Shown: one piece after another, positions 285 to 2,391 of the stretch
How the letters are laid out: every line of letters begins with the position of its first letter
Numbering within the stretch: the first letter of the stretch is position 1
Assembly (NCBI GenBank): GCA_019057475.1
Contig: DXJO01000035.1
Coordinates: 1-14,942 of the forward strand
Length of the DNA: 14,942 nt
Direction of reading: 5' to 3'
From: Candidatus Thorarchaeota archaeon
Lineage (GTDB): Archaea > Asgardarchaeota > Thorarchaeia > Thorarchaeales > Thorarchaeaceae
Position numbers and translations under genes: made by a program
The notes under the pieces: generated by a model
Database searches by the model: none
Told to the model about the DNA's origin: nothing
What the model saw: only the letters and a program-made list of their open reading frames with translations

Positions 285-1307
285 TTGGTCTTCGAAATAC
301 TCTCCGATGGTCGTAAGGTGATGGGCGCATCAGATGAGGAATTAGAAGGCTGGATGAACGATGCATTCGAAAGACGTCTTCGTCGCTTTGGAAGAAGCCT
401 GTTCTGTTACAGTCCTACAGCCTATCCTTACAGAATACCAGACCATACGCAATCGAGTCCCCACAACTTCGTATCTCTCAGCGTGACTGGAACCGCATGT
501 TCCCTAAATTGTGAGCACTGCGATGGAACGCTGCTGACAGGAATGGAACCCACACTCACACCGGAGAATCTCTTCAAGAGATGTACGGATGTGAAGACTA
601 GAGGGGGTGAGGGAGTTCTCATCAGTGGCGGCTCGGATTCCAAAGGGCATGTGCCTCTTGACAGGTTTGCAGAAGCGATTGGCCGAGTCAAGTCCGAGCT
701 TGGCCTTAAGGTAGTAGTTCACACTGGTCTGGTCAGTCCCAAGACAGCTGAACTCCTAGGAACCGCAGGCATTGACGCAGCCATGCTAGATGTAATTGGG
801 GACGCTGATCTTGCAGAACGTGTGTATCATCTTAAGGACGGCCCCCGACAAATGGAACGGTCCCTTGAGATTCTGAATGGATATGGAATACCAACGGTTC
901 CACATGTGCTGGTCGGATTGAACTATGGCAAGCTAGCCGGCGAGATTAAAGCACTGGATATGATTGCTCAGAATTCACCTGCTGCAGTAGTGTTCATCGT
1001 CCTCTTTCCAGTCCGAAATACGCCAATGGAGCACATTACTCCACCAACCCCCCGACAAGTCGGGAAAGTGATGACAGTTGCTCGCCTTGGAATGGAAAAC
1101 ACGCCCGTGTTACTGGGTTGCGCTCGCCCCAAAGGCAAACACAAAATCCAATCAGATCTGTACGCAATTCGCAGTGGCGCTAACGGAGTAGCTCTCATAA
1201 GTCAGGAGGGAGTGGAGGCTGCACGTGCAGCTGGTCTTGAGCCAATCTTTGCGGATGTCTGCTGCAGTCTCGCGTACCAACATGTAACTACTGCCGTTGC
1301 CGAGTGA
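285..1307 (+). CDS. lipS1: Radical SAM protein, biotin-synthase-related; probable archaeal lipoyl synthase subunit LipS1
   Basis: CxxxCxxC (CSLNCEHC) and LISGG, plus the LipS1-type auxiliary motifs GC(M/A)R (LLGCARP) and C-terminal CC (DVCCS). TTG start preceded by GAGG. Confidence 0.8.
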   Translation: MVFEILSDGRKVMGASDEELEGWMNDAFERRLRRFGRSLFCYSPTAYPYRIPDHTQSSPHNFVSLSVTGTACSLNCEHCDGTLLTGMEPTLTPENLFKRCTDVKTRGGEGVLISGGSDSKGHVPLDRFAEAIGRVKSELGLKVVVHTGLVSPKTAELLGTAGIDAAMLDVIGDADLAERVYHLKDGPRQMERSLEILNGYGIPTVPHVLVGLNYGKLAGEIKALDMIAQNSPAAVVFIVLFPVRNTPMEHITPPTPRQVGKVMTVARLGMENTPVLLGCARPKGKHKIQSDLYAIRSGANGVALISQEGVEAARAAGLEPIFADVCCSLAYQHVTTAVAE

Positions 1308-1833
1308 CCCACCCAGCTAGCTCATACCCAAGGTCGAACATCCACAGTCCCACTGCAGATGCCAGAAACTGTGGCCACGGTATTGTAAGAAGCAGAACAG
1401 ATAGTTTGAGAGTTAATCGATAGCGGAAGAACTTGAATACTCTCGGGGAAATCTCTTCATCCGTCCAATCAATACCTTTCTCATCAAGCACAGATGCGAG
1501 GAAGAGCATGAGGAGGAGGGCTGACCAATTAAGCCAGTCAGTGACCGCAGGAACACCTCTCACCAGCATTATGAGTGCAATAAAGAAAAATCCAACTGCA
1601 AACTGCGGCCTGTTTACCTTTCCTGAGAGAAGCACACTAACTACTATGGCAGCAAGCAGAACCAAGTCCCACTCCGTTTGCGTCATGAGGTATCCAAATA
1701 GAATGCCAGACACCGCGAGAGGTAACCAGGCGAATGTGGACCGCTCCATCTCGTCAAGAAGATCATCACCTAGTTTGAGTGTGAAACCCGCACACAGGTA
1801 CGCAAGAAAATAAAACGCCCACTCAAACATCAC
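1288..1833 (-). CDS. Conserved-looking archaeal multi-pass membrane protein with two acidic motifs (KLGDDLLDE, ASVLDEKG)
   Basis: 181 aa with about 5-6 hydrophobic segments; convergent 20-nt overlap with the radical SAM gene; start is GTG 1833 or ATG 1830. Confidence 0.75.
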   Translation of the reverse strand: MMFEWAFYFLAYLCAGFTLKLGDDLLDEMERSTFAWLPLAVSGILFGYLMTQTEWDLVLLAAIVVSVLLSGKVNRPQFAVGFFFIALIMLVRGVPAVTDWLNWSALLLMLFLASVLDEKGIDWTDEEISPRVFKFFRYRLTLKLSVLLLTIPWPQFLASAVGLWMFDLGYELAGWVTRQRQ

Positions 1834-1884: not shown

Positions 1885-1957
1885 GGCTCCTCAGTCTAAC
1901 TATGATTCGTCTCTGGGCATTTCTGCTCTCAGTTAGCCAATTTCCATCATCGGAGCC
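1885..1957 (-). ncRNA. Box C/D guide sRNA with two guides, predicted to target LSU (23S) rRNA H69 and H70-71
   Basis: Minus strand: GGCTCC stem, G, C box ATGATGG, guide AAATTGGCTAA, D' CTGA, GCA-GAAA-TGC hairpin, C' GAGACGA, guide ATCATAGTTAGA, D CTGA, GGAGCC stem. The guides are complementary to UAGCCAA(UUU) and UAACUAUGA. A TATA-like TTTATC lies about 24 nt upstream. Confidence 0.85.
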
Positions 1958-1980: not shown

Positions 1981-1987
1981 GATAAAG
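1981..1987 (-). promoter_or_regulatory. TATA-like box (CTTTATC) for the C/D sRNA
   Basis: Sits about 24 nt upstream of the first base of the sRNA terminal stem (1957). Confidence 0.5.
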
Positions 1988-1999
1988 TTAGTGTGAGGG

Positions 2000-2284
2000 C
2001 TACAGAAGTTCCAGAGGTGTACCAATGGCCTGTCCTGGCAGATTCGTGCGGAACTTGGCACGTACGGCACCACTGTTGCCATGCACATTCAAGACCTTAC
2101 CTAGAAACTCCTTTCCTGTAGGTGAAATCCACTTAGTTCTCCGACCGATGAGTGCCGCAGCTTCGGGCCTTGTCTTAATGTCATCAAACACCAGAATCAC
2201 TTGATTGGGATGCTGCAGGTGCTTGCCTCTCCGGTAGCTTACGACAACACCTTTTCGGCCTTTCAGAACATCTTTCTTGGACAT
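2000..2284 (-). CDS. rpl35ae: 50S ribosomal protein L35Ae (eL33)
   Basis: KGVVVSYRRGKHLQHPNQVIL...GKVLNVHGNSGAVRAKFRTNLPGQAIG is the L35Ae signature. Start taken at ATG 2284, preceded by GGGGAGGA. Confidence 0.95.
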   Translation of the reverse strand: MSKKDVLKGRKGVVVSYRRGKHLQHPNQVILVFDDIKTRPEAAALIGRRTKWISPTGKEFLGKVLNVHGNSGAVRAKFRTNLPGQAIGTPLELL

Positions 2285-2391
2285 GTAGATTCCTCCCCTA
2301 GGGGGGGGTTCGAGGTGACGCCCTAGAGACTTCATATAAGACTTACTGAATGAGCCCAGATTATCTACCTGCTGCAGATGACCTAAAACCT

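Follow-up and report, generated by a model that had tools for sequence, protein, structure and literature searches.

The 14,942-nt stretch of Candidatus Thorarchaeota DNA analyzed here (the window) carries on its minus strand a 73-nt gene that very probably encodes a stand-alone archaeal box C/D methylation-guide RNA (sRNA) of Thorarchaeia. Judged from sequence comparison, this sRNA would target the equivalent of E. coli A1913 in 23S rRNA and would belong to an old guide family of TACK and Asgard archaea. The reading draws on the anatomy of the sRNA, its complementarity to host rRNA, its conservation, covariation and synteny, and the presence of the genes for its partner proteins, all of them observed in the genomes. 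The host assignment agrees with the L10e/L16 protein of the window, the members of whose 90% cluster are named Candidatus Thorarchaeota.

Anatomy and conservation of the sRNA locus

The features of the locus are the following (window coordinates, all on the minus strand).

1885..1957 (-): predicted box C/D sRNA gene, 73 nt, intergenic; homologs in 19 of 24 same-family genomes by BLAST, with covarying stems
1952..1957 (-): terminal stem, 5' arm; 6 bp with 1885-1890, double changes at 2 pairs
1885..1890 (-): terminal stem, 3' arm; pairs with 1952-1957
1944..1950 (-): box C, AUGAUGG; 6 of 7 consensus bases, the final base being G and not A
1933..1943 (-): D' guide, 11-nt spacer; 7 bp with 23S H70/71
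1929..1932 (-): box D', CUGA; canonical
1915..1928 (-): internal GAAA hairpin, the likely closing stem of the C'/D' K-turn; double changes in 3 of 4 pairs among homologs
1907..1913 (-): box C', degenerate GAGACGA; canonical AUGAUGA in some homologs
1895..1906 (-): D guide, 12-nt spacer; 10 Watson-Crick bp with host 23S helix 69
1891..1894 (-): box D, CUGA; closes the sRNA with box C and the terminal stem
1981..1986 (-): TATA-like TTTATC, predicted own promoter; position kept in most Thor homologs
2000..2335 (-): rpl35ae (L35Ae), upstream neighbor, syntenic; Pfam PF01247, E = 8e-20
1288..1833 (-): 181-aa hydrophobic ORF, downstream neighbor; no Pfam match, conserved at Thor homolog loci

A first-pass annotation had proposed a complete C/D'/C'/D architecture, a 6-bp terminal stem, a GAAA hairpin, and a TATA box. 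The stem and the hairpin lie where it had placed them, and its TATA box corresponds to the TTTATC element, which is found ∼25 to 30 nt upstream of the sRNA in most Thor homologs. The architecture was recovered with reservations: boxes C, D', and D are present, but C' is degenerate and C ends in G. The terminal boxes C and D are closed by a stem, as in a K-turn. Internally, a canonical D' faces a C' whose GA and pairing G are invariant in the homologs, and the degenerate C' and the GAAA hairpin most likely form a second K-turn. In an Rfam scan of the window, no family, archaeal sR families included, matched the sRNA locus at an E value of ≤5.

Within the host genome, the statistical support was modest. 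Among 104 C/stem/D'/D architectures found by a genome-wide scan, the sRNA locus was the only dual-guide match. Of 500 shuffled rRNA sets, 18 yielded at least one match; the thresholds were chosen after the locus had been seen. Looser genome-wide C/D scans of the host were without power, as the real count was not above that of shuffled controls, so we claim no host sRNA catalog. The comparative evidence, in contrast, is decisive for treating the predicted sRNA as real. Across 32 distinct homologs, 97% of the cells of both stems were paired and 5 pairs showed double changes; none of 500 shuffles scored as high, a count that overstates the case because related sequences are not independent. In the same set, the UGA of box C and its G paired with box D were invariant, and 9 to 11 bp were formed with H69. 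The set was picked with a pattern that contained the guide cores, so the invariance of the cores is partly by construction; unselected comparisons give separate support. At all examined Thor loci with enough flanking sequence, rpl35ae lies upstream of the sRNA.

Two related elements of ∼71 nt lie near both ends of the contig (window 2-72 and 14793-14864, both on the minus strand), with weak scores of 27 and 25 bits (cutoff, 44.9) for RAGATH-18, which we take to be the RNA of IS607-type TnpB systems. Elsewhere in the genome, a candidate C/D sRNA was noticed on contig G000:C26 near 71661 (+); its C, C', and D boxes are canonical, and its D guide faces 16S rRNA near position 605 of the extracted gene.

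Guides and their targets in 23S rRNA

The host 23S gene lies on contig G000:C46, where the target of the D guide reads C-UAACUAUGA-G and the duplex is therefore 10 bp long. This uninterrupted Watson-Crick duplex with the helix-69 loop was the unique and best match of the guide among host rRNAs and tRNAs. D+5 faces the second loop A, the E. coli A1913 equivalent (G000:C46 position 49041, minus strand), as the first-pass annotation had predicted, and the duplex exceeds the 9 bp that it had set as a minimum. The extra 3' U of its proposed target is not part of the match, the real extra pair lying on the 5' side. Since yeast psi2258 is E. coli 1915 (PMC2794176), A1913 corresponds to yeast A2256. 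Am2256 is made by snR63 (PMC2794176, PMC5199042), and the equivalent human site is A3739, modified with SNORD46 (PMC6461891); the eukaryotic site assignments made at first pass thus agree with the published mapping. The length of 10 to 12 nt, the complementarity to host rRNA, and the Watson-Crick pair at D+5 are those of a C/D guide. As cited in PMC7089733, Yang 2016 found 10 bp to be the optimal duplex length and 8 to 10 bp to give high methylation in vitro. From its pairing, the D guide should direct 2'-O-methylation of the A1913 equivalent in host 23S rRNA.

The D guide tracks the H69 sequence of its own genome. Thor guides mostly carry G at +2 where position 1910 is C, whereas in non-Thor Asgard genomes 1910 is G and the guides carry C. 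Loop variants at 1916/1918 are matched by guide changes as well: UAUAA in G046, G063, G254, and G287, UAUGA in G031, G054, and G294, and UGUGA in G121; the pairing in G060 includes a wobble. This comparison left out families f5 and f22, for which 23S H69 was not retrieved.

Some features of the rRNA itself were also observed. In Thorarchaeia, the pair that closes the H69 loop is C1910-G1920, the reverse of that in other Asgard and most archaea (G000:C46 near 49044 and 49034), and it is A-U in G024. The host 23S gene (G000:C46:47545-51083) spans 3,539 nt against a 2,987-position model and hence carries insertions. The 16S and 23S genes lie on separate host contigs (G000:C9 and G000:C46).

The D' guide has its +5 position on the C1934 equivalent (G000:C46 position 49020, minus strand), 21 nt downstream of the D target in the same rRNA, in keeping with the second guide to an adjacent segment proposed earlier. 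The position held but the length of the duplex did not: the predicted target UAGCCAAUUU is absent from the host 23S, which has UAGCCAAAUG at this place, so that the guide forms 7 contiguous bp, one mismatch, and one further pair, short of the 9-bp minimum. A duplex of 6 to 10 bp with H70/71 was found in 21 of the 21 Thor genomes with both the guide and their own 23S. In the Thor homologs, the G at +5 and its neighbors are kept and the 5' half varies freely; in two homologs, the guide is shifted by one base. The yeast modification map has no modification at C2277, the C1934 equivalent, although m5C2278, Am2280, Am2281, and Gm2288 are present (PMC5199042).

Whether both guides are active in methylation is thus uncertain, as the D' duplex is 7 bp and yeast C2277 is unmethylated. 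A double guide that methylates A1913 and C1934 alike would explain the canonical D' box, the retention of the +5 G and its neighbors, the pairing of at least 6 bp in all 21 genomes (10 bp in some), and the prediction that Methanopyrus kandleri sR43 acts at the same C. Yet 7 bp is below the 8- to 10-bp range, half of the guide drifts or shifts, and the yeast site is unmodified; on balance, we rate methylation of C1934 by the D' guide, and with it a fully active double guide, at slightly less than an even chance. The guide could instead have its real or an additional target in the 23S helix-88 region, ∼470 nt downstream (G000:C46 near 48549), or in 16S rRNA. In the host, the helix-88 match is longer than that with H70/71 (9 bp, -11.8 kcal/mol, versus 7 bp, -9.6 kcal/mol), and it reaches 9 to 12 bp in several genomes of genera g1, g3, and g5. 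However, it falls to 3 to 6 bp in 11 of 21 genomes, shows no guide-target covariation (matched mean, 6.9; permuted mean, 6.6; fraction, 0.15), and varies opposite invariant guide bases; moreover, archaeal double guides usually act on sites within 100 nt (PMC6009581). We consider such a target unlikely, and candidate sites in the helix-88 region, 16S rRNA, and tRNA D-stems were rejected as lacking covariation or being too short. We infer that H70/71 is the conserved partner of the D' guide. Binding there probably provides, at a minimum, a second anchor, which may help to open or hold this crowded region, and the site is perhaps weakly methylated.

The host genome encodes the expected partner proteins, with adjacent fibrillarin and Nop5 genes on contig C18 and L7Ae-family genes on contig C54. 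By analogy with known C/D biochemistry, the sRNA would be expressed and bound by L7Ae at its C/D and C'/D' K-turns, and Nop5-fibrillarin would assemble on it. The D guide would open helix 69 of pre-23S rRNA over 10 bp, the D' guide would bind H70/71 21 nt downstream over 7 to 8 bp, and fibrillarin would 2'-O-methylate A1913 in the loop of bridge B2a.

Distribution of the A1913 guide in archaea

The guide-plus-box pattern was found in 22 of 22 genomes of family f22, 29 of 31 of f5, 6 of 6 of f19, 5 of 5 of f17, and 4 of 4 of f16, and in other Asgard families too; nearly all inspected matches lay inside complete C/D RNAs. The first patterns missed Thor copies with a degenerate C' and f9 copies with one guide change, and a covariance model regained some of these, with further copies in f2 and f9; a missing match is accordingly not read as absence of the gene. 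The search across Asgard genomes suggested at first pass showed the guide to be widespread, but not specific to them, as described below. The D' guide of most non-Thor families differs from that of Thor and is directed to helix 71 near G1945 (near G1940 in f5). The sRNA lies beside rpl35ae in Thor and in four other Asgard families whose partner guide differs, and this shared linkage implies that in Thor we most likely see the same gene, its partner guide having been swapped. G1945 is the equivalent of yeast Gm2288 (snR75), and at loci L179, L184, L187, L191, L193, and L195, the G1945 partner guide follows its own helix-71 sequence.

One f9 genome (G042) has eight near-identical repeat copies on eight contigs, each with the guide-plus-D-box motif. 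The motif may belong to a mobile repeat that is akin to the sRNA, or its presence may be due to chance; MITE-like sRNAs have been described for Pyrobaculum.

Our literature search turned up neither a paper on C/D guides of Asgard archaea nor a measurement of Am1913 in any archaeon. Dennis et al. (2015), whose entries are sequenced RNAs with predicted targets, describe helices 68 to 71 as a methylation hotspot and place E. coli A1912 at alignment position 2178 (PMC4644070). The predicted targets of Ignicoccus hospitalis sR91 are 23S A2179, which is A1913, and G2211, which is G1945 (PMC4644070, Additional file 1). In the highly expressed Sulfolobus acidocaldarius sR113, the D guide +5 faces A1913 (PMC4644070); the table entry "A21779" is evidently a typing error, since the guide sequence gives A2179. 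These two are the closest known counterparts of the Thor sRNA. Like it, sR91 is a double-guide C/D RNA with a nearly identical D guide to the same A, a partner guide on nearby H71, and a hairpin between D' and C', and its layout is nearly the same as that of the sRNAs of non-Thor Asgard families; unlike the 7-bp Thor guide to C1934, its D' guide faces G1945. sR113 shares the D guide to A1913, but its D' guide has no predicted target and it lacks a long internal hairpin. The D' guide of M. kandleri sR43 is predicted at C2200, the C1934 equivalent (PMC4644070), and its D guide also lies on helix 69; however, the latter targets the stem position G2173 and not A1913, and M. kandleri is a hyperthermophilic euryarchaeon; this resemblance is probably convergent.

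In Thermoproteota, 63 of 251 genomes contained the guide pattern and 6 the reversed control; most of the pattern matches lay within complete sRNAs whose partner guide faces helix 71. Many Bathyarchaeia have full C/D sRNAs in which the A1913 guide occupies the D' slot and the D slot holds a guide to A1937. The pattern was at background in Methanobacteriota (8 of 151 genomes; control, 8) and Thermoplasmatota (1 of 121, the seed; control, 1); Halobacteriota and DPANN were outside the survey. At the Bathyarchaeia loci (L053:1637-1700, L139, L141, and others), the guide order is swapped relative to Asgard and Ignicoccus, and the D-slot target A1937 is the equivalent of yeast Am2280 (snR13). A short-pattern scan of all genomes gave mostly chance matches in bacteria, only the Bathyarchaeia matches being complete C/D RNAs, and matches in Methanobrevibacter and marine euryarchaea were rejected.

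The first-pass view of a eukaryote-type site particular to Asgard archaea therefore did not stand: sR91, sR113, and the RNAs of Bathyarchaeia and other Thermoproteota carry the same guide, as far as predicted targets go, and with them its claim to novelty was lost. As Sulfolobus, Ignicoccus, and Bathyarchaeia share the guide, the Thor sRNA is one ordinary representative of a long-standing archaeal family. On the sequences compared, this predicted family is a TACK and Asgard guide in which the A1913 guide is fixed and the partner, aimed at E. coli 1934 to 1945, is exchangeable.

Relation to eukaryotic snoRNAs and significance

Yeast snR63, human SNORD46 (RF00218), and Giardia GlsR7 resemble the Thor sRNA in addressing the same nucleotide with a D-box guide of the same complement. 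They differ in that snR63 and SNORD46 act in a eukaryotic snoRNP, with no similarity shown beyond guide and boxes, and in that yeast has no methylation at the C1934 equivalent. With the SNORD46 model, the second-best match in the host genome fell exactly on the sRNA locus, but its score of 15.9 bits (E = 2.1), which boxes and guide alone explain, is well below the gathering threshold of 40 bits. The sRNA is predicted to carry a D-box guide for Am at the A1913 equivalent and would thus work like snR63/SNORD46; its score does not place it in the SNORD46 family. Of the earlier suggestion of a precursor or analog of a eukaryotic snoRNA, the shared target and similar function were retained and the special Asgard link was not.

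That the locus is a forerunner of snR63/SNORD46 peculiar to Asgard archaea, at a site untargeted in others, would fit the same site and D-box position in SNORD46, Giardia GlsR7, and nucleomorph GtNM-R8 (PMC6461891), the wide occurrence of the guide over Asgard families, and the background levels in Methanobacteriota and Thermoplasmatota. It is very improbable given that the D guides of Ignicoccus sR91 and Sulfolobus sR113 point to the same A, that the Thermoproteota matches are far above their control and mostly in complete C/D RNAs, with full sRNAs in Bathyarchaeia, and that the SNORD46 score is low. We give equally little credence to a chance match or a cis-acting K-turn of the rpl35ae 3' end or the downstream gene leader that guides nothing in trans. 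Archaeal L7Ae does bind K-turns in mRNAs, the sRNA sits between two co-oriented genes, and loose scans yield chance-level matches; but the locus has its own TATA-like element, its guide covaries with rRNA, its neighbors and orientations are quite different in other lineages, and orthologous-looking RNAs are expressed as small RNAs in Ignicoccus and Sulfolobus. The trans-acting guide RNA of an old TACK and Asgard family remains our preferred reading. Descent of SNORD46/snR63 from an archaeal A1913 guide is possible but unproven: the occurrence of the guide in TACK, Asgard, and eukaryotes is consistent with inheritance, but 10 bases complementary to invariant rRNA next to a CUGA can also come about several times independently. 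We propose only tentatively, as a doubtful scenario, a single origin in the TACK-Asgard ancestor, retention by the majority of Asgard families, five of which keep the rpl35ae linkage, with exchange of the partner among 1934, 1937 to 1940, and 1945, and inheritance as snR63/SNORD46/GlsR7.

Methylation sites in archaea are generally described as showing little conservation from one genus to another (PMC6009581), and the A1913 guide has nevertheless been kept across Asgard and Thermoproteota. Its absence above background in two euryarchaeal phyla fits a TACK-Asgard-eukaryote inheritance without singling out Asgard, and two positions addressed by partner guides, 1937 and 1945, are the counterparts of yeast Am2280 and Gm2288. 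If the single-origin scenario were true, the A1913 guide would offer a rare case of an archaeal guide RNA that can be followed from phylum to phylum and on into eukaryotes. Thorarchaeia themselves gain a previously unannotated guide RNA and a predicted methylation at A1913.
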